Of a stretch of 64,000 bases of DNA, positions 3,679 through 43,150 are shown one piece after another (within the stretch, counting starts at the first letter, position 1; the number at the start of each line of letters is the position of its first letter). The notes under the pieces were generated by a model that was not told where the DNA came from, searched no databases, and saw nothing but the letters and a program-made list of their open reading frames with translations. The DNA comes from Escherichia phage Ecwhy_1, in sequence record MH791411.1. One strand, given 5' to 3'. The translations under genes and the position numbers were made by a program.

Positions 3679-5643
3679 ATGAGTATAAATCGAATTAGAG
3701 GTGATGGTGGTGTAATTATAGATAGTCAGGCATTTCTAGAATTACCTAAAGCACCGACTAAAGAAACCGCTGATGTGGTTAGATCAGGGATGATTAGATA
3801 CAATAAAGGATGGAAAGCATTTGAAGGTGTACTAGACTTTGAAGATGGTTCAATGGCATATCGACGTTTTGCAAACCTAGATGCAAACGGTAAACTTCTT
3901 ACTTCCCAATTACCAGATTCAGTAACTAGTGGTTTACAATTTGTTGGTACATATAATCCCATCCCAGATGATATCGATCCACCTTTAGCACAAACTCCAC
4001 TACCAGCACCATCACCATCGCTTAATGGTGATTATTATGTCGTTCGTGGTATAATGGATGCCGCACAAGCACATTATGAAGCAAATAATCCACAAACAAG
4101 TCCTGTTACATTTACACCTACAAATCCAACTGGACAAGGTAATTGGATTGAAATTTTATATTATGTTGACTCTAATCCAAATATATCTGGTGCTAAACTA
4201 GTAACATACGCTTTTGCTAGAATTATTACTGCATCTATTCCCAGTACTGGACATGATGGCCTTGAAAATTTAGCAACAGATACTGACTTGACCAAACCAT
4301 TTGCATCTGGTGTTCCAATGAACCAAACTGCACTTTCAGATGGTGATTGGATTATTATAACTGAAGATAAGAATATACGTCTTCGTCAGTCAAGAACAAG
4401 CATTTCCGCTGCTTCAGTATTATATGACAATACTGTAATGATTGCAAATCATCGCCAATTTAGAACAAACGCAGGGACCGTTCAAACATCCATAGATAAC
4501 GTTGTGATTGAGTGTTTACGTAGAACTGGCGATTCCATGTATAATGATGGAACAGACGGCTCTGGGCGTTTTGGGGTGGTGTATGGCAGTGCAGCAGCAC
4601 CAGCATTGACATTTAATAATAATCCGTTTGACCCAACGAACAACCCAGGTAATGACCCAACTAAGTGGTCCGATGCTAATACTGGTATATTCCATCCAGC
4701 AGATGATGCAATTGGTTTTACAACAGCCGGAACTGAGCGTGTTAGAATTAATAATGGAACATTAACATTATTCCAAACTACCGCTACACCAGCAGCTACG
4801 CCAGTAATACGTTTTGATAATGCATCAAACACAAACGTAGGGATAAGTGCAAGTAGTAATATTATTTCTTTAAGTTCAATGAATAAAGTTCAAGTTGAAT
4901 TTAAAAATGGTGAATCACATTTTCATGGAAATATTATTGTAGATGGATCAACATCACTAACTGGTGATTTAAACGCAGGTAACATCACTGCCAGCGGGAA
5001 TTTAGTTGTTAAAGGTAATACAACACTAGGCGACACTACTGGTGACACTATTACAGTTAATGGTGTTAGTACTTATAATGCAAATACTAATTTCAATGGA
5101 ACTAATAACAAATTCAAAAACATAAACTTACTAGAGAATGGTGTATTCACATTAGAAAGTACTACAAACCAAAGTGATATAAAACTACTTGGTGCAGACT
5201 TACGTTTCACTATGGGAAGTTATGCTGATGTAAGTATATATGATAACGGTGTTATTCGTACTCGTTTCAACCGATATGGTATTCAATTACCAGTACTGGC
5301 TACAATTGATAACTCAGTTGGTGTTGATGGTATGATTGCATACTCAAATACCGAACGTACATCGATGCAGAAGGTCCAAGGACAATGGGTTCCAATTGGT
5401 TCTGGTTCTGTACGTACTGACCCGTTTACTGCGTCAGCGTGGGTTTTAAACGGCTCATATTACACATTAACAGTAACTGCTAGTAACATAGTAACTGCTG
5501 AAATTCAAGAACTCGTAAGTACTGGTGTTTACACTCGTGTTGAAGTTGATAGTGTTACATTCAATGGAACAAGCGTAGTGTTCAGTATTCCTGCAACTCC
5601 TGATGTGAGATTTGCCGGACGTACACTGGTTACATTAAGATAA
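3679..5643 (+). CDS. tail fibre protein
   Basis: 654 aa; N-terminus (GMIRYNKGWKAFEG) is the type commonly seen at tail-fibre N-termini, followed by Asn/Thr/Gly-rich beta-type sequence; GAGGAAA RBS. Confidence 0.65.
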   Translation: MSINRIRGDGGVIIDSQAFLELPKAPTKETADVVRSGMIRYNKGWKAFEGVLDFEDGSMAYRRFANLDANGKLLTSQLPDSVTSGLQFVGTYNPIPDDIDPPLAQTPLPAPSPSLNGDYYVVRGIMDAAQAHYEANNPQTSPVTFTPTNPTGQGNWIEILYYVDSNPNISGAKLVTYAFARIITASIPSTGHDGLENLATDTDLTKPFASGVPMNQTALSDGDWIIITEDKNIRLRQSRTSISAASVLYDNTVMIANHRQFRTNAGTVQTSIDNVVIECLRRTGDSMYNDGTDGSGRFGVVYGSAAAPALTFNNNPFDPTNNPGNDPTKWSDANTGIFHPADDAIGFTTAGTERVRINNGTLTLFQTTATPAATPVIRFDNASNTNVGISASSNIISLSSMNKVQVEFKNGESHFHGNIIVDGSTSLTGDLNAGNITASGNLVVKGNTTLGDTTGDTITVNGVSTYNANTNFNGTNNKFKNINLLENGVFTLESTTNQSDIKLLGADLRFTMGSYADVSIYDNGVIRTRFNRYGIQLPVLATIDNSVGVDGMIAYSNTERTSMQKVQGQWVPIGSGSVRTDPFTASAWVLNGSYYTLTVTASNIVTAEIQELVSTGVYTRVEVDSVTFNGTSVVFSIPATPDVRFAGRTLVTLR

Positions 5644-23578: not shown

Positions 23579-24370
23579 TTATCCGATAATCATTCCAAGT
23601 GGGTCACCACCATCTTTGTATCTCTTCAACTGTTCTTTAAGCTGTTCTTGAAGTTGTGCACCTTCATTACGTAATGTATCACCATCCATAGAGAATGTAC
23701 CCTGTGGTCCAGGCAATGTAGCAAATTTAGCACGGTTGCGACCCAACATAATCATAGCTTCAGACAATGCCCAGTCACGTAGCCAAGGATAGCTTTGTTG
23801 ACGTTGGAATAGCAATGGTTCAGGTATATTATGATATACATGTAATAGCACTTCTTCAGTACCGCGAATATCACGATCAATTATTAGTTTTTTGGTCATT
23901 GGGTTGAACTGGAAGATGATTTCTCTACCAAACATACGCCCAACTAATTCTTGGAATTGAAAACTAAAATCATAAGTAGTTAAGTCATAACCACCAGCGT
24001 TACGTGCAGACGTTAAAAGGTAAGTGTTGGTAAATGCGAGTGAAAAAGGGTCTACTGAGTTACCACTACCAGAACTTAGATAACCGTTACCATAACGATA
24101 AATCTGTTTGACAATTTCAACTTCAGTAGGAAGCATGTATACAGATTGTGAATCATAGAATTTCATGTTCAAGAATGCTTCTTCTTTTGAAGCAGAACTC
24201 CATGCTCGGTAGTTTGATACCGCATTATCAATTGCAATTTCCAATTGACCATCAGTAATTTCAACTTCAACTGCACCAGCACCTAACATTTGAGTGATAA
24301 CATCTTTCAGTTTTTCACGATGATCAAAGTTTGGAGCATCTGGGTTTCCACCCATATAATCGTAAGACAT
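23579..24370 (-). CDS. hypothetical protein (possibly virion/tail-associated by position)
   Basis: Track ORF 23579..24385; the ATG at 24370 has a GAGGTG RBS. No confident motif. Confidence 0.5.
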   Translation of the reverse strand: MSYDYMGGNPDAPNFDHREKLKDVITQMLGAGAVEVEITDGQLEIAIDNAVSNYRAWSSASKEEAFLNMKFYDSQSVYMLPTEVEIVKQIYRYGNGYLSSGSGNSVDPFSLAFTNTYLLTSARNAGGYDLTTYDFSFQFQELVGRMFGREIIFQFNPMTKKLIIDRDIRGTEEVLLHVYHNIPEPLLFQRQQSYPWLRDWALSEAMIMLGRNRAKFATLPGPQGTFSMDGDTLRNEGAQLQEQLKEQLKRYKDGGDPLGMIIG

Positions 24371-24420
24371 AAAAAAGCACCTCATTAATGTTTATATACA
24401 TTATTTAGAGGTGCTAATAG

Positions 24421-24639
24421 TTATTTGGAATTATACAAGCAATACAAGTATACCATAGGAGCAAAATGTTCGGTATCAACTAAGTATATTAACTGGGTGT
24501 CATATATACCGTACAAATCTCGAAATTTATCTCTGTACAGCAACAATGACTTATTGTTGTGTGGGTCAACCCAGTACTTTAAGTCATTGTAGTGCAACGT
24601 GTTATTACGGTAACCTGATAATATTTGTTTTTTAGCCAA
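24421..24639 (-). CDS. hypothetical small protein (non-ATG start?)
   Basis: 72-aa ORF whose first codon appears to be TTG with no clear RBS. Confidence 0.3.
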   Translation of the reverse strand: MAKKQILSGYRNNTLHYNDLKYWVDPHNNKSLLLYRDKFRDLYGIYDTQLIYLVDTEHFAPMVYLYCLYNSK

Positions 24640-25009
24640 CTTTTTTACAATTACTTAGTAAATGCATGATGGCATCAGCGGTAAATGGTCCCAGTACTAA
24701 AACTTCTTCTCCATTACCGAAGATACTCAATGGTACAGATTGTTGTCCTGCTAGATATTCGATTTGTTCTAATTCGAAAATGTCATCAGCAGCATAAACA
24801 ACCTGTTCCATTTCATTATCTTTAATCCATGACTGCCAATGTTCTTTAAACTGCTTCGCTTCGTATTCCAGTACATAGTTAGGTGATTCTGGATTGTACT
24901 GATGTAGCATTGTCATACCAGCCATAACCAGTTCTTTTGGTGATGGAGTAGAATCTTTCAGTACTACGATAGCTTGGATAGTTTTAACTTTAACGTTTTG
25001 AGCAGCCAT
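24632..25009 (-). CDS. hypothetical protein
   Basis: 125-aa ORF. Confidence 0.45.
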   Translation of the reverse strand: MAAQNVKVKTIQAIVVLKDSTPSPKELVMAGMTMLHQYNPESPNYVLEYEAKQFKEHWQSWIKDNEMEQVVYAADDIFELEQIEYLAGQQSVPLSIFGNGEEVLVLGPFTADAIMHLLSNCKKVG

Positions 25010-25021
25010 TAGATACCTCTA

Positions 25022-25330
25022 TTATAGAATGATTTTGTTATCAGGAACAATCAGTGCTGGTTTTTCTTCGATAGCCTTGATTGCTTCAACATAAGCTTCA
25101 ACTAGTGCAGGGTTTGCATCGCTGATGCTAATGATGTTGGATTTATAAAAAATAACGCCTTTTTCAGAACTAATGAATTCTAGATAATCACGTAGAATGA
25201 TTTCACCTTGTTCGTCAGTACCTAGCTGTGCTGGGTAGTTAACTACTACTGCTTCTGGTGCATCATTTTGTAGAATTGCTAGTACTGGGCCAACGCTGTT
25301 GATGTTTAGTAGTTTAACGGTCATAGTCAT
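25022..25330 (-). CDS. hypothetical protein
   Basis: Track start 25339 is TTG; the ATG at 25330 has an AAGGA RBS. Confidence 0.45.
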   Translation of the reverse strand: MTMTVKLLNINSVGPVLAILQNDAPEAVVVNYPAQLGTDEQGEIILRDYLEFISSEKGVIFYKSNIISISDANPALVEAYVEAIKAIEEKPALIVPDNKIIL

Positions 25331-25349
25331 TTTTGTCAAGTCCTTTTGT

Positions 25350-25829
25350 TTATTTTAGAATGTATAAGTGTTTTTCTGCATTAACCAGTCTGTGGTCAAT
25401 GATTTCTTTGATAACGTTCCAGTTACCACCGCCTAAATCGGCTCCAATTTTCGGGAAGTGTACATGGATCTCTTGTGGTTCATTTTTAATGAATTCATTC
25501 ATCGAGTTAAATGCAAGGTCAATCGCATCATAACTTACATACTTCTTACCATCATTACCATAATACTCTTGTGTAATGCAGTTTGCAATAATTAAGTTAT
25601 TATTTGGTGCTGCATAGACAACTTCACCCAATTTCAAACCATTCTGATTGGTATAACGTGTATGATACACATCATATGCCAATTGGTGACGCTTTCTTAA
25701 TTCTTTTGCAAAACCAGAACCCATCTTACCCTGAGCGTTACAACCATGAGCGATAATATGTAATGCAGTTTGATCAGTAGTAACAGTACTGAATAAATCA
25801 AACAGATTACCACAATGTTCATGTATCAT
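25350..25829 (-). CDS. macro-domain protein (ADP-ribose binding/processing)
   Basis: 159 aa; IIAHGCNAQGKMGSGFAKEL and HVHFPKIGADLGGGNW match the macro-domain Gly-rich ADP-ribose-binding loops; GGAGAA RBS. Confidence 0.7.
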   Translation of the reverse strand: MIHEHCGNLFDLFSTVTTDQTALHIIAHGCNAQGKMGSGFAKELRKRHQLAYDVYHTRYTNQNGLKLGEVVYAAPNNNLIIANCITQEYYGNDGKKYVSYDAIDLAFNSMNEFIKNEPQEIHVHFPKIGADLGGGNWNVIKEIIDHRLVNAEKHLYILK

Positions 25830-25839
25830 TATATTCTCC

Positions 25840-25869
25840 GAAAAGAAAGGACTCTGTAATCAGAGTCCT
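25840..25869 (-). terminator. rho-independent terminator
   Basis: Hairpin aggactctg-taat-cagagtcct (25848-25869); on the minus strand followed by a U-rich tract. Confidence 0.65.
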
Positions 25870-25880
25870 TAATTTATATT

Positions 25881-26138
25881 TTATTCTTCTTCACCGAATC
25901 GAATTTTTTTCAATTCTTTTCGTTGTTTGCGAGCAATGGTACTTTTGTGAAGTCTATTACCACGTTTTGTGTCTTTCGTAATGTACCATGAATCTTCTGG
26001 TGCATTATAATCACAATAACCATCTTCTGTAATCGTCCCTAAGAAAGCAGACTTTTTAGGAATGGATGTTTGAGCTTTAGCAGCGAATTGGCCTTTTGCT
26101 AATTGTTCACGAAAACTGAGCATAATAGTATCTCCCAA
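25881..26138 (-). CDS. hypothetical small basic protein
   Basis: 85-aa ORF, Lys/Arg-rich C-terminus. Confidence 0.45.
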   Translation of the reverse strand: MGDTIMLSFREQLAKGQFAAKAQTSIPKKSAFLGTITEDGYCDYNAPEDSWYITKDTKRGNRLHKSTIARKQRKELKKIRFGEEE

Positions 26139-26168
26139 ATTGTTACGAAGAACTTGTGTTCTTCATTA

Positions 26169-26411
26169 TTATTTAGGGTTGCTCGAAACCTCTACTGAAG
26201 CGATGAATGCCAAAATATCATCTTTACTGAAAGCTTCAATAATATAAGCAACCGCTTTATCGTACTGTTCTTTCTTAGTAGTGTATTCTTTCATTTTGTG
26301 AATTTTACGTTGTGCTTTAACTTTTGCAGCTTCCATATCAGGCATTTTAAATTCAACACCCAATGTGTCAGCTAAATGTTTTGCACGAGATGATACTTTA
26401 TCAATATTCAT
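26169..26411 (-). CDS. hypothetical small protein
   Basis: 80-aa ORF. Confidence 0.45.
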   Translation of the reverse strand: MNIDKVSSRAKHLADTLGVEFKMPDMEAAKVKAQRKIHKMKEYTTKKEQYDKAVAYIIEAFSKDDILAFIASVEVSSNPK

Positions 26412-26659
26412 TAATTCCAGCGACCTTCTTTAAGACCTTCAACGAAACCAGTACAGCCACCTGGAACGTAAACATCGTTTACGAAAATTTGTGGAACCTG
26501 TCGTACTGGCTCACCACATAGTTCAGATAGTTTAGCACCATCAATACCAGCGGTAACAATATCGATAAACTCCATATCAAATTTGTTATTTTCACATACT
26601 GCTTTAGCAGTGTCGCAGAATTTACAACCAGTAGTGCGACCATAAATTTTAACTTTCAT
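26411..26659 (-). CDS. glutaredoxin/thioredoxin-like protein (NrdC-like)
   Basis: 82 aa; CxxC active site (GCKFC) near the N-terminus and a C-terminal GG motif, typical small glutaredoxin layout. Confidence 0.7.
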   Translation of the reverse strand: MKVKIYGRTTGCKFCDTAKAVCENNKFDMEFIDIVTAGIDGAKLSELCGEPVRQVPQIFVNDVYVPGGCTGFVEGLKEGRWN

Positions 26660-27059
26660 TTCTTTTCCCTTTATTTCGTTGAAACATTGTAACAGCCTTT
26701 ATTATACTGTTACACATTCGTTCAGTCAAATACTTTTGACAATCTAGTACATCAATGTACATGAACTTATCCAATTCTGGGTGACTTCTACCATATCTGT
26801 TTGTGTAAGTACTTTTACACTCCAACTCTTCTGGTATAGGCTTATCTTTGGCTGTATAGAAAAATAAAACTAAACGTTTCCCCTTTCTATACGATACATC
26901 ACCAAGAAACAGAAGATCATCTTCATCGATTTCATATCCTGTCTCTTCGTAGCATTCACGTACAGCAGCCTCTTTAAATGTTTCTGTACCTTCAGTTTTA
27001 CCTTTAGGTAAGTCCCAGTGATTCTGTCCGTGTTGTATGCCCGATAAGTATCTGACCAT
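26649..27059 (-). CDS. Nudix hydrolase
   Basis: Complete Nudix box GKTEGTETFKEAAVRECYEETGY (Gx5Ex7REUxEExGU); track start 27062 is GTG, ATG at 27059. Confidence 0.75.
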   Translation of the reverse strand: MVRYLSGIQHGQNHWDLPKGKTEGTETFKEAAVRECYEETGYEIDEDDLLFLGDVSYRKGKRLVLFFYTAKDKPIPEELECKSTYTNRYGRSHPELDKFMYIDVLDCQKYLTERMCNSIIKAVTMFQRNKGKRNES

Positions 27060-27168
27060 CACGATAAAATATTATACCACAGCTATAACGCATAATCTTA
27101 TCTCTTTATCATCAAGTGATGTTCAGATACTAGTAATTATATCAGAAGATGTTAACTTGTCCCAGCTT

Positions 27169-28284
27169 TTAGAACATTTGCTTGATTGCTTCAATACGCA
27201 ATTCAGCAACAAAATCACGAATCTCCGATGTTTGGAGTTCACCATCTTTCACTAACTGCTGAATATCAGGTAATTCAACATCAGTATAACGATCATAAAC
27301 TTTAATAATCAAATCTTCAAGTTCAGAATCAATTTCTTTGTTCAAAATGAAGTTTTCCAGTACTTTGTAAAGGAAATCTTCACCACCATTGTTTTTGATA
27401 TTCATATCCAGTAAGATTTGTCCCATTTCAACTGGGGTCTTCTTACGGAAGGTTTTAATATCTTCACGGAAACGCTTGATGTAATTACTAAACTTAACGT
27501 ACTTAACTGGAACCTTAATGGAACCGTTAAGTACTGAATCATTATTTACTTCTTCATTTTCAAGAAGTACTGTCCATAAGAAATATGGTTTATATTCTTC
27601 TGTACAATTTGCAGCGATAGAATCAATTAATTCCAGACGTTTCTTGGTAACTGGAACTGTAGTAAATGCCTTTTCGTAATAACCAAATTGTACCAGAGTT
27701 TTGATAAACTTGGAAGGGTTTTCTTCAGAAAGTGCTTTTTCGAATTCAACAAAAACACGATCTGGAACTAGATGGTCTAGTTCACCAGTACTAACCATAT
27801 CTTTACACATTGTCATAGTATCATCATGGATTGTAAAGTCGGAGTAACGCGTAGCGAAACGGGCCAAACGTAGAACACGCAATGGATCTTCTTTAAAGTG
27901 TTCTGATACATGACGAAGTACTTTGTTCTTGATATCAGCTTTCCCGCCATAAGGGTCGATGTGAATCTGGAGTACTGGATCATATGCAATACTATTGATT
28001 GTGAGATCACGACGATATAGATCTTGTTCTAGTGTCACACCTTTTGTATTCACTTCGAAGCCACCATATCCAGTACCAGTTTTACGCTCAGTACGGGCTA
28101 ATGCGTGTTCATTACCTTCTGGACTTAGATATACAGGGAAATCCTTACCTACTTGCTTGTATCCAATACTTTGCAAGTATTTAATATCGGATTCGGTAGC
28201 ACCGACAATAACATAATCTTTGTCTTTTGCACGGATACCCATTAAACGGTCACGAACGTAGCCACCAACCAAATACTTTTTCAT
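27169..28284 (-). CDS. tRNA nucleotidyltransferase (CCA-adding enzyme / poly(A) polymerase family)
   Basis: 371 aa; N-terminal GGYVRDRLMG and DKDYVIVGAT match the class II CCA-adding/PAP head domain. Confidence 0.7.
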   Translation of the reverse strand: MKKYLVGGYVRDRLMGIRAKDKDYVIVGATESDIKYLQSIGYKQVGKDFPVYLSPEGNEHALARTERKTGTGYGGFEVNTKGVTLEQDLYRRDLTINSIAYDPVLQIHIDPYGGKADIKNKVLRHVSEHFKEDPLRVLRLARFATRYSDFTIHDDTMTMCKDMVSTGELDHLVPDRVFVEFEKALSEENPSKFIKTLVQFGYYEKAFTTVPVTKKRLELIDSIAANCTEEYKPYFLWTVLLENEEVNNDSVLNGSIKVPVKYVKFSNYIKRFREDIKTFRKKTPVEMGQILLDMNIKNNGGEDFLYKVLENFILNKEIDSELEDLIIKVYDRYTDVELPDIQQLVKDGELQTSEIRDFVAELRIEAIKQMF

Positions 28285-28285
28285 A

Positions 28286-28408
28286 TCATTCCCCCATCAA
28301 CCAATCACGTAGACGTTCCCAGAAGCCTTTTGGCTGATATTCTGGATATTCATATTCATCTGTTCCTTGCTCGGAAACACCCCAATCTTCTTCTAATACT
28401 GTAATCAC
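28286..28408 (-). CDS. conserved micro-ORF, copy A (about 40 aa, ends DWLMGE)
   Basis: GTG start with GGAGG RBS; stop TGA one nt before the CCA-enzyme ATG; paralogue of copy B at both nucleotide and protein level. Confidence 0.4.
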   Translation of the reverse strand: MITVLEEDWGVSEQGTDEYEYPEYQPKGFWERLRDWLMGE

Positions 28409-28419
28409 AATGCCTCCAA

Positions 28420-28857
28420 TTAAATTAATCTATCACGTAGACGGTCGTAATATTTTGCATGTATATCTAGTATACACTGAAATGATGGATAGTCAATACT
28501 AAATGTATCATCAATGAACATGTACTGAAGAAGTGTTTCTGGTCCATTATCAACAACTGGTAATGTCCCTTCTTTTTTTGATAGGGTGTGCCACATCAAC
28601 TCACTTTCAATATGGTGAGTTGCGTATGTCAATTCAATCTTACTTTTTCGTAGTAAAATTAACAATTCATCATTGTCATCGAGTGCATTACGAAATTTAA
28701 TACGAACTGTACCCTGGAAATTATTAGTGTACATAACACGATGATGATTGTATGAAATTAAACCACGTCTTTCAGTACTGATTTCATGTTCAGCAAAGTA
28801 CTTTAACGTTTCATTAAATTTTGGAATTTTACTTGCGTCCACCAATGTAATCCTCAT
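28420..28857 (-). CDS. hypothetical protein, member of a tandem paralogue pair
   Basis: C-terminal LLQYMFIDDTFSIDY parallels YLQYQFIDDTFGFDF in the neighbouring gene; start 28857 or 28863 uncertain. Confidence 0.5.
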   Translation of the reverse strand: MRITLVDASKIPKFNETLKYFAEHEISTERRGLISYNHHRVMYTNNFQGTVRIKFRNALDDNDELLILLRKSKIELTYATHHIESELMWHTLSKKEGTLPVVDNGPETLLQYMFIDDTFSIDYPSFQCILDIHAKYYDRLRDRLI

Positions 28858-29236
28858 ATACATGATATACGTTCATTATACTATTATATAGTTCAAAGTC
28901 AAATCCAAATGTGTCATCAATGAACTGGTATTGCAGATATTCTTCATATGAAGCATCAATTGGTAATGATCCAGCACGAATATCATCTGATTTAAAATCG
29001 TCAATGTATCTTAATGTTATGTCTTCATCAACAGTAATATCTATCATCAACGTATCGTCACTGTACCAAAGGTTATGTATACGGATGTAAAGTTTCTTAG
29101 CACGATTAAAACTAGATACATTGGTATTGCGATGGAGTTTATCTAAGTTGAAGTAAAAACCAGGCTCGTTTTTACTTATGTTTTTCATATGTTCTGCAAT
29201 CGAATCAATTATATAATCAATGTTGAATGTTCTCAT
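28829..29236 (-). CDS. hypothetical protein, member of a tandem paralogue pair
   Basis: Paralogue of 28420..28857; the ATG at 29236 overlaps the upstream stop (ATGA); track start 29242 is TTG. Confidence 0.5.
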   Translation of the reverse strand: MRTFNIDYIIDSIAEHMKNISKNEPGFYFNLDKLHRNTNVSSFNRAKKLYIRIHNLWYSDDTLMIDITVDEDITLRYIDDFKSDDIRAGSLPIDASYEEYLQYQFIDDTFGFDFELYNSIMNVYHVYEDYIGGRK

Positions 29237-29418
29237 AAACAAATCTCATAGCGGTTTGTGTTTGGATTGTAGCAATAGGTATCATTAATTTTAACACCAG
29301 GTTTAAGTGTTATTGTTGTTCCTACTTCAGTACTGGGTTCTGCATCACAATAAATCATCACACCAACGCCACAGATTAAAGCTAAGATACAAATAATAGC
29401 ACATATTGTATATTCCAT
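29233..29418 (-). CDS. small membrane protein
   Basis: 61 aa from the ATG at 29418; N-terminal hydrophobic helix ICAIICILALICGVGVMIY; start overlaps the stop of micro-ORF B (TGATG). Confidence 0.45.
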   Translation of the reverse strand: MEYTICAIICILALICGVGVMIYCDAEPSTEVGTTITLKPGVKINDTYCYNPNTNRYEICL

Positions 29419-29543
29419 CACTCCCCCATCAGCCAATCAAAGAGACGTTCCAAGAAGCCATTAGGCTTGTATTCTGGTTCTTTGTTCACGTCGGTTTCTT
29501 GTTCATAAACACCCAAATCTTCTTCAAGTATAATTGTATTCAT
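29418..29543 (-). CDS. conserved micro-ORF, copy B (41 aa, ends DWLMGE)
   Basis: ATG start; protein MNTIILEEDLGVYEQETDVNKEPEYKPNGFLERLFDWLMGE parallels copy A; stop overlaps the next start. Confidence 0.45.
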   Translation of the reverse strand: MNTIILEEDLGVYEQETDVNKEPEYKPNGFLERLFDWLMGE

Positions 29544-29926
29544 TATATATTATACTCTATTATACCATCATCACTTTCACCAGACAACCACTTAATGTAA
29601 TTTACTTTGTAGAAATTAATCAATGCATAAGTGCTGTACTCAATCAACAAGTGATCTCTCAAGAATTCGTCTTGAGCATATCCATCTTCATCCAAATCTG
29701 TTGGAATATCAGTTTCTTTGTCTTGAATGTGTAAAGTTATTGTGTCTTTTGTTATACAAATTGTTATATGATTACAAATAGTAATGATGATTATGCTATA
29801 TGTTCTATTGAAATATATTGTGAAATCTTCATTAATATTATATCTTCGACTTTCTTCATATTTCTGATATGGGTCGAAATGTGATAAATTAACTTTAATT
29901 AATGTATTTCTCAACTTACACCTCAA
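29543..29926 (-). CDS. hypothetical protein
   Basis: 127-aa ORF; start codon uncertain. Confidence 0.35.
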   Translation of the reverse strand: MRCKLRNTLIKVNLSHFDPYQKYEESRRYNINEDFTIYFNRTYSIIIITICNHITICITKDTITLHIQDKETDIPTDLDEDGYAQDEFLRDHLLIEYSTYALINFYKVNYIKWLSGESDDGIIEYNI

Positions 29927-30307
29927 TCATATAAAGTAATTATACATTTTATTGTACAATATAAAAAGGTCTTTAACATTATCATAAGTAATATCAGATA
30001 CATCATGAATTAATGATAACTGGAAAAATGATGCTTCGTCTATCTCTACTGGGATTATAACATCATAGTCTTCGTCAATTTTATGGGTGTAGTATTTTAT
30101 GTGATCAGCATTCAACACAAGGTTGTATTTTGTATCATCTTCAATTAATCCGACAAATTGAGATTTTTGATTAATAAAAAATCCAATCCCAACACAACGG
30201 TTATCTGGATATGGATAGTACCATCTATTAATAACTAGGTGTTCAGGTAAGTCCATATCATGTGTTGATATTAAAGATTTTACAATTCCCATCCAGGAAT
30301 AATTCAT
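29927..30307 (-). CDS. hypothetical protein
   Basis: 126-aa ORF with ATG start. Confidence 0.45.
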   Translation of the reverse strand: MNYSWMGIVKSLISTHDMDLPEHLVINRWYYPYPDNRCVGIGFFINQKSQFVGLIEDDTKYNLVLNADHIKYYTHKIDEDYDVIIPVEIDEASFFQLSLIHDVSDITYDNVKDLFILYNKMYNYFI

Positions 30308-30321
30308 AATTAAAACTCCAT

Positions 30322-30350
30322 AAGAAAAGGGACAGAATAATCTCTGTCCC
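30322..30350 (-). terminator. rho-independent terminator downstream of the hpf-like gene
   Basis: Hairpin gggacag-aataatct-ctgtccc (30329-30350); on the minus strand followed by ttttctt. Confidence 0.65.
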
Positions 30351-30361
30351 TTTATTATATC

Positions 30362-30694
30362 TTACTCTTCGTCTTCAGTCAAGTCTTCTTGAACTGGATG
30401 TTCGGGGTGGTTACGGCGATGCAATTTGATGCTTTTGTCTTTACCTAAGACAGTTTCCATTTTTTCAAATGAATCACCAATTGCTTTGTATAAATCTGCA
30501 TCATCGGCGGTGACAATCTTACCACCTGATGTTAAAGTTACGGAATATTGATTCTTATGCTCTTTCTTCACATGAACACCGATATAAAGTACTGAAGAAT
30601 CACTAAACTTCGTTAGTGCATTTGCTTCTGCATGAATCGCGTCATTGATTGCTGGAGTAATATCAACATTACCTTGGATAACTAAATCTAGCAT
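30362..30694 (-). CDS. hpf: ribosome hibernation promoting factor / RaiA-family protein
   Basis: 110 aa; aligns along its length with E. coli HPF as I recall it (ITG-N-V-ITxA near the N-terminus, a G-x-I-xA-x-DxYxAIDxxxxKL core, Lys-rich tail). Confidence 0.7.
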   Translation of the reverse strand: MLDLVIQGNVDITPAINDAIHAEANALTKFSDSSVLYIGVHVKKEHKNQYSVTLTSGGKIVTADDADLYKAIGDSFEKMETVLGKDKSIKLHRRNHPEHPVQEDLTEDEE

Positions 30695-30719
30695 AATTTA
30701 CCTACCTTTTTTTTTAGTT

Positions 30720-31646
30720 TTAAAGATTACTAACTAACAATTCTGCACGGTTTCCTACTTGACGATACCATAGAGAATTCTTAATTTCTTTTTTGAACTT
30801 GTTATTATTTTGATTATCAACGCTTTTCCATAATTTATTGAAAGTATTTAACTTATCAACTCCTAATGTAAATGCCATCTCAAATAAAATTCGTTGTTGT
30901 TCAGCCGTAAGGTTTGTTGCATTTCTTTTCTTCAATAATAAAACTAAATCATTATTAGTTCGTTCCATGTCAGACAATAAAAGTTTATGTGCTTGTGACT
31001 TCGTAATACCATTACGATACTTACTTGCATCTGATTCTTTCTTTCCAAGATAATGTCCGTACCCAATAGTGAAGTTACCTTTTATATCACGATACGGATA
31101 AAATTTAGAATTTCGATATGGAACTCCAACTTTCCCACCAAGTAAACGTCGTTTGTTCTTGGACTGAAATTCAATAGAACCTTCAGCTTCTTTGATGTGA
31201 TTGACAATTTCTGGATCTTTATAATCAAACAGTACAGTCACATCTGGTAACAATACGTGCTTCAAATCCTCTTTTGTTGGGATAAAGATACCCTGAGAAG
31301 TATGAAGAGTTGCATTTAAGTTGATGTTCTTCAACAAAATGACATAATCTTCAATCTGTACATTTTTAGGTTTAAATTTCTGTGCAATAGAATAATAACT
31401 ATCACCAGGTTGAACCGTATAATGTTTCTCGCTGCTTGGAACTGCTTTTGGTACTGACACCTGTGGTAGTTCCTGCTTTTGAATTTGCGTAACTTGTGGT
31501 TTTAAATTATGCACCTGACTTTCGTCTAATGATGATGCACGATCACTTTGAGAAAAACCATAAAATCCAATCGCAGCGAATAGGGCTGATGAAACTAATA
31601 CGCCTACGGCAATTTTAGTTTTCAGTTCTTTTTTCGCTTTTTTCAA
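30720..31646 (-). CDS. endolysin: N-terminal TM/signal-anchor + LysM + T4-lysozyme-like (GH24) domain
   Basis: Hydrophobic segment KIAVGVLVSSALFAAIGFYGF; LysM (YTVQPGDSYYSIAQKF); lysozyme motifs GNFTIGYGH, RILFEMAFTLG, SLWYRQVGNRAELL. No in-frame ATG near the 5' end; probable TTG start at 31646 preceded by AAAGGAGG. Confidence 0.8.
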   Translation of the reverse strand: MKKAKKELKTKIAVGVLVSSALFAAIGFYGFSQSDRASSLDESQVHNLKPQVTQIQKQELPQVSVPKAVPSSEKHYTVQPGDSYYSIAQKFKPKNVQIEDYVILLKNINLNATLHTSQGIFIPTKEDLKHVLLPDVTVLFDYKDPEIVNHIKEAEGSIEFQSKNKRRLLGGKVGVPYRNSKFYPYRDIKGNFTIGYGHYLGKKESDASKYRNGITKSQAHKLLLSDMERTNNDLVLLLKKRNATNLTAEQQRILFEMAFTLGVDKLNTFNKLWKSVDNQNNNKFKKEIKNSLWYRQVGNRAELLVSNL

Positions 31647-31813
31647 AACGCCTCCTTTGTTGGTTGTTAACAATGAGCAATCACAAAGAGGGCAAAGAGG
31701 CCATTTGCAAAAGCCTCATTGGACTTTCTACAGTACTCAGTTGTTCTTTGGAACATTTAAGTAGTATAGCATACTTTTTAGTTATATCAAGACCTATTTA
31801 CCAAATAACCACA

Positions 31814-32224
31814 TTAATCGTAGTATGTTCTACCAATGGTGATGTGATATTTGAAATATTTAGATGCCAAACCCAGTTCATTACGAATATGTGCAATGAA
31901 ATCATCTTCAAACTCTATGATAAAGAATGACCCAGGTTTCTTATTGTCTTTTACTTCTTCGATGAAAGGATCGAACTTAATCTTAACTTTCATACCATCG
32001 TACTTTTTCCAGTACTCTGGATTTGGTGGCACTTCACCACGAACGATACTGACATGTGCTCCCCATTGTGGGTCTTTAATATCAATATGTAAGTCAGTTC
32101 TGATGAAGTACTGGTAGTATCGAACCAACTGTAATGGAAGTTGCAGTACTAACCAGAAGTCCTTCTTCTTTTTCATAGTGCCACGATCTGGATCATACAC
32201 CAGAGTTCCTTCCATTTCAATCAT
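31814..32224 (-). CDS. 2H-phosphoesterase-like protein (LigT/cyclic-phosphodiesterase fold)
   Basis: 136 aa with two H-x-[ST]-x motifs (AHVSIVRG and YHITIGRT) at the spacing expected for the 2H superfamily. Confidence 0.5.
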   Translation of the reverse strand: MIEMEGTLVYDPDRGTMKKKKDFWLVLQLPLQLVRYYQYFIRTDLHIDIKDPQWGAHVSIVRGEVPPNPEYWKKYDGMKVKIKFDPFIEEVKDNKKPGSFFIIEFEDDFIAHIRNELGLASKYFKYHITIGRTYYD

Positions 32225-32231
32225 ATTTTAC

Positions 32232-32435
32232 CTATAAATTTACATATATATTTTTATTTTCAATACGAACATAAGTTTCTAAAACATCTTTCGGAATTTT
32301 ATTACTTGTTTTGTACCATGTAGTATTATCTACTAAAACAAAAGTTTCACCTTCAGTTTCACCAAATGTACTTAGTGCATAAATGAAGTAGTTTGGTGAT
32401 GCACTACAATAAACATCAGCATTAATTTCAATCAT
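32232..32435 (-). CDS. hypothetical small protein
   Basis: 67-aa ORF. Confidence 0.4.
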   Translation of the reverse strand: MIEINADVYCSASPNYFIYALSTFGETEGETFVLVDNTTWYKTSNKIPKDVLETYVRIENKNIYVNL

Positions 32436-32581
32436 ATTTTACACCACAATAAAGCTTAATACAACGAGTGTAATAAACACACCCACAATGGCGGTCATTT
32501 CAGGGTTAGCATCGTATGTATAACGGATGCACTTTAGAAAATCTTTACCAAACTTTTTTAGTCCATTCATATATTTTCCTT

Positions 32582-32938
32582 TCATTTCTTGTGTAAAGGG
32601 TCGGCACTTTCATAATAGATTGTATCATTGTTTCGCTCAATAGTAAAACTCTTTTGACACAACTCTTCAGCTAAACCCTTAGCATAGTTTAATACATCTC
32701 GGTTGAGATATACTTCTTCTTTTGGGAAGCGTGGGTACTGAATAATACGAGCACACATTCCACTTTCAAGACCACCCGTGTAGATGTATTCACACGGAAT
32801 CAATTGTACACAAAATCCAAGCTTGAATGCAAACTTTCGTGTGTACTCTCTTGCTGTTTGGATATCACCAGCAATATGAATATTCCAGTACTGTGTTTCA
32901 ACTGTACCTTTGTCGATGTATTTCATACTCATCTCCAA
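32582..32938 (-). CDS. hypothetical protein
   Basis: 118-aa ORF. Confidence 0.45.
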   Translation of the reverse strand: MEMSMKYIDKGTVETQYWNIHIAGDIQTAREYTRKFAFKLGFCVQLIPCEYIYTGGLESGMCARIIQYPRFPKEEVYLNRDVLNYAKGLAEELCQKSFTIERNNDTIYYESADPLHKK

Positions 32939-32955
32939 TTATAGCATAAAAAATC

Positions 32956-33351
32956 CTACTTGCCCAAATCTTCTATAATTCTTTTTATGATATCATTGTT
33001 TTCCAGACATAAAGTACTGAAATTTCTACCTGTTTTTTCATTGAGTTCATTAATCTCAAGCATAAGATAACCATAAGTGATATCTTGGACCCTACTTCGT
33101 TTTACCCTTGAGTACAGTCTGATGGGTACAGATACACGAGTATTCAAAAAGAATTCTGATAAATCATAACGATATACCAGGTATTCATTCTTGTAACGTT
33201 TACGACTGTACGATTCTAAACACTGTGGGAAACGTCTATCAAACATACTACTTCTTAGTTGAAGTGTGATTGGATCTAACTTATGCGAGAAATACTTTTT
33301 GATTATTTTATTAAATCTTGTTACATGTCGTTTACGCCATCTCATAATCAA
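32956..33351 (-). CDS. hypothetical basic protein
   Basis: 131-aa ORF, Arg/Lys-rich. Confidence 0.45.
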   Translation of the reverse strand: MIMRWRKRHVTRFNKIIKKYFSHKLDPITLQLRSSMFDRRFPQCLESYSRKRYKNEYLVYRYDLSEFFLNTRVSVPIRLYSRVKRSRVQDITYGYLMLEINELNEKTGRNFSTLCLENNDIIKRIIEDLGK

Positions 33352-33791
33352 ACCTTAAAAAATATAATAGGAAAGTATTTTGTTTCCGAATCTGAAATAC
33401 TGTTACAGTAATCTTTCAATTCATCATGGATAACATTCAAATGAATAGTAGGATAGTTCATAGGTTTCTGTACTGGGCCAGTGGCATATACGCAATCTGT
33501 TCTATCCCAACTTACATATTGGGTTGGGTAATTATCTTTAGTACGTTCTTCAATAATAATATTATATTCTGGTGTATTGAATATATACATATCACATTGT
33601 GAAATGTACTGAACATTAAAATCACCGTCAGTGAGATGGATCATGTTCCCATCGCAATATAAGCATGATGGTTCAGTGTATCCTAAAATTGAAGATAAAG
33701 TTCTGAAGTTTGCTCCTGGACCCAAATATACCAAATTCGTGTGTAAACAAATATCAATGAAACGTTTGAAGACTTCAGTTTCGTTATGCAT
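33348..33791 (-). CDS. hypothetical protein
   Basis: 147-aa ORF; start overlaps the downstream stop. Confidence 0.45.
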   Translation of the reverse strand: MHNETEVFKRFIDICLHTNLVYLGPGANFRTLSSILGYTEPSCLYCDGNMIHLTDGDFNVQYISQCDMYIFNTPEYNIIIEERTKDNYPTQYVSWDRTDCVYATGPVQKPMNYPTIHLNVIHDELKDYCNSISDSETKYFPIIFFKV

Positions 33792-33834
33792 ATAGATACC
33801 TTAAAAAGACCCCACATAGTGAGGTCAAACACTT

Positions 33835-34059
33835 TTAAACGTTATCATCATCCAAAGCTTCACGGTAAACATAATAAACATGCGTACCTAGAAGAACAAT
33901 GAGTACAATGAATACTAACCAGAATGGTACAAAATGCAGTACAAGTGCAAATGCCATTACGGTAATAACCATCACTACTGAACTAAAAATAAGACTAGTC
34001 GCTTTTTTAAATCCAGATAGTACATCATTCAAAACGCGTTTCATAAATGAATCAACCAT
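33835..34059 (-). CDS. small membrane protein
   Basis: 74 aa; hydrophobic segment VVMVITVMAFALVLHFVPFWLVFIVLIVLLG. Confidence 0.45.
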   Translation of the reverse strand: MVDSFMKRVLNDVLSGFKKATSLIFSSVVMVITVMAFALVLHFVPFWLVFIVLIVLLGTHVYYVYREALDDDNV

Positions 34060-41911: not shown

Positions 41912-43150
41912 TTATTTTTTACTGTACCATTGCATTTCACGGATATCTAATAGTACCTTCGTAGCCAACTTTATGTTTGGTCGCTTCGGTAGATGGGTCT
42001 TATGATACGCCACATTTCGGATGTAGTCAACCTTTTCGTTGAAATAATCCATAACTTCTTGATACAACCACTTCCCGTTACGAATGTCCATCAACATAGC
42101 AGCATCCGGTCGGTGAACTTGGATGATACCAGTTTCAAGTGCTTCCTGTGCTGTATTCAGCAGCCTGACTGTATGCATTGCGTGTTTACAATCATAACCG
42201 TGGTGTGATTCAAGAATAGCACGTTTGGCATTACGATTCTGCTTCCATTTGTGATAACTCTTACGGTTCTCACTATTTTCTTTGTATTCTTTTTCATTGA
42301 ATTTTACAATGAGTTCAGGACGAACTTTCAATTCTTCTGTAGTACGTTCTTTGTTGAAGTAACGTAGTGAACCATCAGCATTCACTGTACTTTCATTCGG
42401 GTTGATAATTACCCCAAAGATGTTTTCACCGTAATGGATTAGTTCATATCCAGAATTGTAATTCAATAAATTGAAATCACGATCTAATACTTTATCAGTA
42501 CTATAATTATGTACTAAACGTACAAAATGATATTGTTTCAATGCTTGTGTTGAAACTAATTGTAATGAAGTATCACGCATGTATTTTTCAAAATCAATTT
42601 TTGTAGCATTGAATGGGTGAAGATTGGATTTATTCAAACGGTCAACCAAATACTGCGGAAATGTATCATACATCCATGAAAGTACTTCGTCAACTGGATG
42701 TTCTTCTAAAATTTCATTTAGTTTACGTTCAGCAATTCGTTCCTTATCGAGCCAGCCGTGGTGATTAGACATACGCTTAACCTGATTGTATGCATATCCA
42801 CTGTATGAGTGTGCAATCTTTGAACTCAATAATTGCTGATTGAATGAGCGTAGATAGTCATAGATTTCAGTACTTTCTACGATGTGTTCCGGTTTAACCC
42901 ATAGTGATTCAAGAATGTTTGGGTTAGCTTCAGTATACAGACTTAAGTACTGATTGATTTCATAAAATTTAGTATCTTCTTCAGAAGTATCTGAAACTTC
43001 CTTAACATTAAAAAAAGGAGTTAGGATATATTCTTTGTTTGCAAGGAAGATACCACGATAATCTGTATCACTTTCTGGTGTGCTTGTGCCATACGCCTGT
43101 GAACCAGCTAAGTGTTTCACAATAGTTTGTTCTAGAAAATTGTTTTTCAT
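41912..43150 (-). CDS. Pol-beta-superfamily nucleotidyltransferase
   Basis: 412 aa; N-terminal GSQAYGTSTPESDTDYRGIF fits the GS-x(9-13)-DxD nucleotidyltransferase signature. Substrate unknown. Confidence 0.6.
   Translation of the reverse strand: MKNNFLEQTIVKHLAGSQAYGTSTPESDTDYRGIFLANKEYILTPFFNVKEVSDTSEEDTKFYEINQYLSLYTEANPNILESLWVKPEHIVESTEIYDYLRSFNQQLLSSKIAHSYSGYAYNQVKRMSNHHGWLDKERIAERKLNEILEEHPVDEVLSWMYDTFPQYLVDRLNKSNLHPFNATKIDFEKYMRDTSLQLVSTQALKQYHFVRLVHNYSTDKVLDRDFNLLNYNSGYELIHYGENIFGVIINPNESTVNADGSLRYFNKERTTEELKVRPELIVKFNEKEYKENSENRKSYHKWKQNRNAKRAILESHHGYDCKHAMHTVRLLNTAQEALETGIIQVHRPDAAMLMDIRNGKWLYQEVMDYFNEKVDYIRNVAYHKTHLPKRPNIKLATKVLLDIREMQWYSKK

Follow-up and report, generated by a model that had tools for sequence, protein, structure and literature searches.

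On the evidence of profile searches and a structural model, the gene at positions 30362-30694 of the window (the whole 64,000-nucleotide stretch of Escherichia phage Ecwhy_1 DNA, MH791411.1, analysed here) encodes a genuine but divergent member of the HPF/RaiA family of ribosome-silencing proteins. An earlier note, made from the letters of the sequence, had proposed a ribosome hibernation factor in this place, and both its coordinates for the 110-aa open reading frame on the minus strand and its choice of family are borne out. The protein matches the Pfam profile Ribosomal_S30AE (PF02482), which is carried by all full-length relatives in the protein database, with 43.1 bits against a gathering cut-off of 23.7 (E = 7.4e-11). 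The match joins residues 8-87 to profile positions 5-84 (80 of the 88 positions covered); because the final ~20 residues form a tail beyond the domain, the proposed alignment with bacterial HPF along the whole length holds for the domain and fails for the tail. Among the NCBI models, TIGR00741 gave 34.7 for the window protein, below its cut-off of 40.9, and 57.2 for a Munch-type orthologue, which passes; the HPF equivalog PRK10470 gave 23.3 bits against a cut-off of 125, and the RaiA equivalog PRK10324 gave no match to the window protein. In PHROGs, the protein falls into phrog_34864 (3e-53), whose function is unknown, and matches the S30EA family more weakly.

Searches against sequences and structures of known proteins led to the same family. 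A phmmer search of PDB sequences returned hibernation factors only, down to E ~0.04, with 9t0z as the best match (1e-7) and E. coli HPF at 1.6e-3; E. coli RaiA was absent from this search at E <= 1. When a profile of the phage clade was compared with the two E. coli proteins by hhalign, it matched HPF with a probability of 98.2% (score 76.7) and RaiA with a probability of 97.0% (score 60.9). Modelled by AlphaFold2 from 13 homologues (pLDDT 74, pTM 0.61), the protein shows the b-a-b-b-b-a topology expected of the family, with strands at residues 2-8, 36-46, 49-56 and 59-65 and helices at residues 14-30 and 68-85, followed by a disordered stretch from residue 88 to 110 (pLDDT < 50). All 37 of the Foldseek matches of this model in the PDB at E <= 1e-3 are HPF, protein Y (pY), RaiA or RafH, mostly in complexes with ribosomes, with TM-scores up to 0.67/0.76; double-stranded RNA-binding domains (dsRBDs) appear among the lower-ranked matches, and structure matches in BFVD are the proteins of phages PBECO4 and GAP32. 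Profile search and modelled fold, the two checks on which the earlier note had staked its choice of family, both uphold it.

The window itself can be assigned by sequence similarity to an Asteriusvirus, a jumbo phage of ~350 kb in the Rak2/121Q/GAP32 group that resembles 121Q and PBECO4. A megablast search with positions 29900..31700 returned 35 phage records, all of them ~350-380-kb coliphages or Salmonella phages, of which TH47 is the closest (95.9% identity), followed by Turkey3 and fEgEco12 (92%) and by 121Q and PBECO4 (84%). The remark in the earlier note that this is not a standard T4-type gene therefore needs another frame of comparison, the genome being that of an Asteriusvirus jumbo phage and not of a T4-type phage. 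The novelty that the remark implied does not hold: RefSeq names gp533 of the Asteriusvirus 121Q "HPF/RaiA family ribosome-associated protein", other records use "ribosome-associated inhibitor A", "ribosome hibernation promoting factor" or "sigma 54 modulation protein/S30EA", and gp183 of phage GAP32 has been reported as a phage HPF (Mizuno et al. 2019, PMC6375957). The family assignment is correct and already known from RefSeq and the literature; the value of the present analysis lies in the RaiA-like architecture, the eroded contact surface, the clade-wide orthology and the operon structure. The features discussed below are collected in Table 1.

Table 1. Features of the HPF gene and its surroundings in the window
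Feature	Position	Strand	Remarks
HPF/RaiA-family CDS	30362..30694	minus	ORF with ATG start, 110 aa
Shine-Dalgarno AAGGTAGG	30708..30701	minus	6 nt 5' of the HPF-gene ATG; direct sequence reading
Lysozyme-like gene	30720..31646	minus	N-terminal membrane anchor, LysM and GH24; shares the HPF transcription unit
Sigma70-like promoter TTGATA-16-(TG)n-TATACT	31763..31790	minus	10/12 match, extended -10 TG
Sigma70-type promoter TTGACT-17-TATAAT	30354..30382	minus	11/12 consensus match
Intrinsic terminator	30322..30353	minus	Stem 30353..30343 / 30336..30326, loop GATTAT, run UUUUCUU
2H phosphoesterase	31814..32224	minus	Below Pfam cut-off
CCA-adding tRNA nucleotidyltransferase	27169..28284	minus	HPF-gene island
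NUDIX	26649..27062	minus	HPF-gene island
Glutaredoxin	26411..26659	minus	HPF-gene island
Macro domain (weak)	25350..25829	minus	HPF-gene island
RlaP nucleotidyltransferase	41912..43150	minus	HPF-gene island

A tblastn search with the HPF protein returned 37 records, and positional orthologues of the gene were found in these 37 Asteriusvirus records, in five of the Munch type, in Erwinia phage Hallingskeid and in 20 of the GAP32/CBB/Eneladusvirus type, the last including CBB, the Eneladusvirus phages of Yersinia, Serratia and Erwinia and the Xanthomonas phage XbC2. The order lysozyme-like gene, HPF, CCA-adding enzyme, NUDIX and glutaredoxin is found in every Rak2-like jumbo-phage lineage examined, namely in 121Q, EJP2, Hallingskeid, Munch, GAP32 and the window. 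Given this conserved locus and the orthologues across lineages, the HPF gene can be regarded as an old and fixed component of the clade. The gene is under purifying selection, with a dN/dS of 0.15-0.3 over the whole gene in pairwise comparisons with unsaturated dS. In the relatives, a purine-rich GGAG or GAGG is found at the position that matches the Shine-Dalgarno sequence of the window gene.

GAP32 gp183 and the other jumbo-phage "sigma 54 modulation / S30EA" proteins resemble the window protein in length (~105-111 aa) and in their acidic tail. The gene order of GAP32 (lysozyme, HPF, CCA-adding enzyme, NUDIX, glutaredoxin, macro, neck, sheath) is likewise the same, as is the presence of a promoter and a terminator 3' of the HPF gene. 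However, the sequences have diverged so far that tblastn links no protein of the GAP32 type to the Asteriusvirus type, the promoter of GAP32 is found beyond the stop codon, and upstream there are inserted HNH genes. These two HNH endonuclease ORFs (GAP32 positions 4752..5365) lie between the lysozyme and HPF genes, and Munch has a 205-aa ORF in the same place; on account of these insertions the junction is a recurrent insertion point at which the two genes nevertheless remain neighbours.

A word-indexed protein search returned 12 clusters only, all of them from phages and on contigs the size of jumbo phages, and an exhaustive profile search of 1.84 billion representatives returned 58 proteins at E <= 1e-3, among which there was no clear bacterial donor. 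The nearest profile matches, P0014 to P0017, are proteins of ~105 aa with a basic-then-acidic tail on contigs of up to 351 kb. P0014 is 73% identical to the HPF protein of Salmonella phage Munch and its relatives, and its locus reads RNA ligase, DUF2828, 2H-SAK, lysozyme, HPF, CCA-adding enzyme, NUDIX, glutaredoxin and gp13. A scan of IMG/VR with the alignment of the clade returned 121Q itself only. The second-best profile match, P0013, a metagenome protein of 1605 aa, was rejected: it consists of ~29 near-identical tandem repeats of 53 aa, its 131 bits add up from 29 weak matches, all to the beta4-alpha2 region, and an artefact of assembly or concatenation is the probable explanation.

In its architecture the phage protein is RaiA-like: it is short and single-domained, with a folded domain of approximately residues 1-87, a basic segment from K85 to R94 and a disordered tail of ~22 residues that ends in EDLTEDEE. 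Its 110 aa compare with 113 for RaiA and 95 for E. coli HPF. In MAFFT and hhalign alignments the tail motif LHRR, which is conserved as L-x-(K/R)-R in the phage clade, stands opposite the EARR of RaiA, and the tail can be aligned as far as phage residue 98 and RaiA residue 100. The acidic C-terminus, for which RaiA has VEEVEEE, is kept in all lineages, including GAP32 (STEDNEE), where no promoter overlaps it; of the 44 short members of the HPF family that lie closest to the phage profile, 22 have acidic ends as well. The tail of RaiA heads toward the site of RMF on the ribosome (bioRxiv 10.1101/2025.10.07.680626). The RaiA subtype has the 22-residue tail, the RR motif and the acidic end in its favour and the silent RaiA equivalog against it, and the short HPF (YhbH) subtype agrees neither with the length and tail of the protein nor with its score on the HPF equivalog. 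Of the C-terminal dimerisation domain of long HPFs (~60 aa after a linker) there is no trace, nothing being folded past residue 87 in the AlphaFold2 model. E. coli RaiA reportedly opposes the formation of 100S dimers driven by RMF and HPF. The absence of the long-HPF domain and the resemblance of the tail to that of RaiA, which acts against RMF-dependent 100S formation in E. coli, make dimerisation by the phage protein alone unlikely.

The whole is best explained, and here our confidence stands about midway between doubt and acceptance, by a phage protein that caps idle 70S ribosomes in the manner of RaiA, so that the ribosome pool is preserved and not dimerised. Like E. coli RaiA (pY), the protein would enter the decoding centre of the 30S subunit (A and P sites and mRNA channel) in vacant host ribosomes, binding through the basic face of helix alpha2 (K78, K85, K87, K90, R93 and R94) and through the beta-sheet. 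Ribosomes bound in this way would be held as translationally silent, nuclease-protected 70S monomers, and the tail, running toward the RMF site, would work against 100S dimers of the RMF-dependent kind. What the phage gains is speculation: it might keep the finite host ribosome pool intact and readily reusable when infection lasts long or when cells grow slowly or are prone to dormancy. General shut-off of the host, which the earlier note had offered beside preservation, is less likely as the purpose: with genes for RNA repair and tRNA maintenance close by, and with the long infection cycle that jumbo phages have, preserving ribosomes or countering dormancy is a more attractive purpose than global shut-off. 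RaiA-like capping is favoured, besides the fold and the tail, by the retained contact residues described below, by purifying selection and the orthologues across lineages, and by the conserved neighbourhood of genes for RNA repair and translation maintenance. Counted against it are the lost basic positions described below, the NCBI scores below cut-off, the slightly closer relation of the core to HPF, the share of DNA-level constraint in the conservation of the tail and the negative result with the HPF of phage rV5, which is of a different lineage. In the literature we found no transcriptome or ribosome-binding study of any Asteriusvirus.

With E. coli RaiA (YfiA, protein Y) the phage protein shares the domain, the fold, a similar length, a disordered Arg-Arg extension and an acidic end, and by extension it may share the formation of silent 70S monomers and the interference with RMF. 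It differs in its low identity (23-25%), in the missing equivalog match and in the loss of several basic residues of helix alpha1. The settings differ as well, for the phage gene has a sigma70-type promoter of its own genome, whereas RaiA belongs to a stationary-phase or cold-shock regulon.

The contact surface was compared in an alignment of 15 proteins of the phage clade, 50 other representatives and E. coli HPF and RaiA. In structures of enterobacterial HPF on the 70S ribosome, contacts are made by positions 80, 83, 87, 89, 91 and 93, Tyr30 and Lys26 (bioRxiv 10.1101/2025.10.07.680626). In E. coli HPF numbering, the window protein keeps an aromatic residue at 30, lysines at 80, 87 and 89 and basic residues at 29 and 95 but in place of R17, K23, K26, R83 and K91 it has N, E, A, T and I, respectively; these five lost basic positions are K or R in 58-82% of the other aligned proteins. 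About half of the conserved basic ribosome-contact residues of the family are thereby lost and helix alpha1, deprived of its basic positions, is acidic or neutral, so the binding surface is only partly preserved. The protein as a whole has a net charge of -8 and a pI of 5.1.

These losses lend weight to a second reading, less probable than capping yet with a real claim to consideration, in which an exapted or eroded homologue has kept the fold but leaves the decoding centre unoccupied, serving another RNA or phage partner or acting as a weak competitor of the host factors. The five missing contacts with the acidic helix alpha1, the overall charge and the sub-threshold TIGR00741 score are all in keeping with it, and so is the relation of the fold to dsRBDs, which also surface in the Foldseek search. 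A further point in its favour comes from phage rV5, whose HPF, the only phage HPF assayed, was not found in high-salt-washed ribosomes and left 100S levels unchanged (PMC6375957). That result and the five lost positions together make ribosome binding by the window protein uncertain. The reading has to contend, however, with the retention across the phage clade of K80, K87, K89, the aromatic residue 30 and the DxY...I motif of helix alpha2, and with purifying selection throughout a deep clade. The acidity is also less telling than it seems, for over the 90-residue core it does not exceed that of E. coli HPF, where this core has a net charge of -3. Munch-type orthologues, moreover, keep R17 and K26, and it is they that pass TIGR00741.

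The comparison with rV5 is one between phage-borne short HPF-family proteins of E. coli phages. The rV5-like (Vequintavirinae) HPF of 105 aa belongs, however, to a separate lineage: it is ~44% identical to E. coli HPF and is encoded in a ~137-kb genome in another context.

The HPF gene stands in a conserved island of genes related to RNA repair, translation maintenance and ADP-ribose (23579..28284, 31814..32224 and 41912..43150, minus strand), which is followed by a gp13-like neck gene and a tail sheath gene. In relatives, an additional RNA ligase and a DUF2828 RNA-binding protein are encoded upstream in the island. Carried further, RaiA-like capping could form part of an anti-dormancy maintenance of ribosomes, a proposal that we hold only tentatively and consider rather doubtful as a whole. 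The protein would occupy the HPF/RaiA site with its acidic tail toward the RMF site, would keep ribosomes from being locked into 100S dimers by the host or by RMF-inducing defences such as DRT2, and would shield idle 70S ribosomes from RNases, in a joint module with RNA ligase, the Ro-like DUF2828 protein, 2H phosphoesterase, CCA-adding enzyme and RlaP. An anti-RMF role is testable because the DRT2 defence raises RMF levels (2026 review, PMC13434031). More generally, phage-borne hibernation factors suggest that the state of the host ribosome pool matters in infection beyond the supply of mRNA and tRNA. With its fixed locus, deep clade and RNA-repair neighbours, the present gene offers a good handle on how phages promote, prevent or exploit hibernation.

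A canonical short HPF, which with host RMF would turn 70S ribosomes into 100S dimers and so hibernate or shut off host translation, is an unlikely alternative even though the core of the phage protein points in its direction. E. coli HPF (YhbH) is the closest E. coli homologue, sharing the aromatic residue 30, K80, K87 and K89; in BLASTP and hhalign alignments the core is 29% identical to HPF and 23-25% identical to RaiA, and by sequence comparison it thus appears slightly nearer HPF. The higher hhalign score, the presence of E. coli HPF and not RaiA among the PDB sequence matches and the weak match to the HPF equivalog, where the RaiA equivalog gave none, agree with this, and the RaiA-like tail may accordingly be convergent. 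Nevertheless, the protein falls far short of the HPF equivalog cut-off, lacks R83, K91, K23 and K26, has no dimerisation domain of the long-HPF kind and carries 15-20 additional C-terminal residues, a tail that is foreign to short HPFs and whose counterpart in RaiA runs in the direction of the RMF site. Dimerisation on a global scale would, besides, silence the very ribosomes on which the phage depends. Long HPFs (~180-200 aa; Firmicutes, Thermus and cyanobacteria), which share the fold of the N-terminal domain and provide the top Foldseek and PDB matches, differ in possessing the C-terminal domain that makes 100S particles without RMF.

The HPF gene begins 25 nt 3' of the stop codon of a lysozyme-like gene. 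It was previously placed upstream of an endolysin gene, but in the direction of transcription it lies downstream. The name endolysin, too, finds no support. The neighbouring protein (Pfam Phage_lysozyme 1.4e-9, LysM 2.5e-4) has a basic N-terminus and one hydrophobic anchor, followed by LysM and GH24; its annotations vary between lysozyme, tail lysozyme and LysM protein, and its orthologue in 121Q has 308 aa. The likely start codon of the gene is a TTG at 31646 preceded by AAAGGAGG; the ORF as called mechanically starts at 31673. The characterised muralytic enzyme of the genus, LysUE1 of phage UE-S1, is a different protein of 162 aa that is encoded elsewhere (PMC12805682), and identity of the lysozyme-like neighbour with the UE-S1 endolysin was rejected accordingly.

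Both genes probably depend on the sigma70-like site 5' of the lysozyme-like gene, and a promoter-like site is kept at the matching position in 121Q, EJP2 and Hallingskeid. On the strength of this conserved 5' site, the 25-nt gap and the terminator after the HPF gene, we read lysozyme and HPF as a two-gene unit, in which HPF would be the last gene between a sigma70-type promoter and an intrinsic terminator. The leader of the lysozyme gene shows no unusual folding (z = -1.3), and Rfam returned nothing at 27000..34000. Sites of the form TTGACA-N16-18-TATAAT with at most one mismatch are found 13 times on the minus (coding) strand and not once on the plus strand. In the related phage PA5oct, RNA-seq supports transcription by the host RNA polymerase from promoters of the form TTGAC/TATAATA (PMC7318152). 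A promoter of the sigma70 type suggests that HPF may be expressed from early on.

The dedicated terminator that the earlier note placed at 30322..30350 is correctly located. Its stem AAAGGGACAGA / TCTGTCCCTTT extends over 30353..30326 with a GC core at 30350..30343 / 30336..30329, and is followed by TCTT, the U-rich run ending at 30322. In a 56-nt context the hairpin folds with -19.7 kcal/mol (z = -3.8 against dinucleotide shuffles). A consensus scan, which extended the stem into the T-run, for that reason gave this terminator on the plus strand only. Hairpins of -13 to -18 kcal/mol with a T-run are found at the matching position in 10 loci; their inner stem sequences differ by compensatory changes, the pairing being kept while the sequences vary among lineages. 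Since a MAFFT alignment did not bring terminators from different lineages into structural register, they were folded one by one, and the comparison consists of these individual folds in place of a formal covariation count.

A second sigma70-type promoter overlaps the end of the HPF gene. Its -35 hexamer lies within the codons for Leu105 and Thr106 and its -10 hexamer between the TAA stop codon and the hairpin, which starts 0-4 nt past the -10 hexamer. The resulting promoter-terminator module (30322..30382, minus strand) is conserved: TTGAC(A/T) and the -10 hexamer recur in nine loci, the encoded proteins of which share as little as ~30% identity, and GAP32 has the promoter shifted to a place immediately past the HPF stop codon. 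The promoter would drive the next gene (ATG at 30307). If transcription starts 7 nt past the -10 hexamer, most of the 5' arm of the hairpin is missing from the new RNA, which leaves the hairpin with -4 to -6 kcal/mol in place of -13 to -18 kcal/mol and no longer adjacent to the U-run. With the hairpin weakened and away from the U-run, RNA begun at this promoter would escape termination and enter the next gene, while read-through transcripts from upstream would stop at the hairpin.

Because the -35 hexamer coincides with the Leu-Thr codons, the conservation of these residues in the tail is partly a constraint on DNA: Leu105 is encoded by TTG in all nine loci, while the invariant Leu27 uses four different codons. 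The acidic residues of the tail look selected at the protein level, since their codons vary and they persist in GAP32. That the ORF is mainly a carrier of promoter and terminator DNA with a dispensable protein, as the frozen synonymous positions of its last codons might suggest, is barely credible and effectively refuted by the dN/dS over the whole gene, the intact fold with its conserved core residues and the retention of the protein in GAP32, where the promoter lies outside the ORF.

The octamer of T4 late promoters, TATAAATA, occurs on neither strand of the 64-kb window, against 8.0 +/- 2.8 expected from shuffles, so that late promoters either look different in this phage or the motif is avoided. 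Another element, GGGACA-N13-(T/G)GATATAAT, is found in five copies on the minus strand (62780, 60524, 39321, 27163 and 8152, given as the first base of GGGACA) and in none on the plus strand, and downstream of several copies come ...TTGTAACAACA... and a ribosome-binding site. GGGACA by itself occurs 15 times on the minus strand and twice on the plus strand of the window, and the longer motif may represent a phage-specific class of promoters with an upstream element that is not of the sigma70 type.
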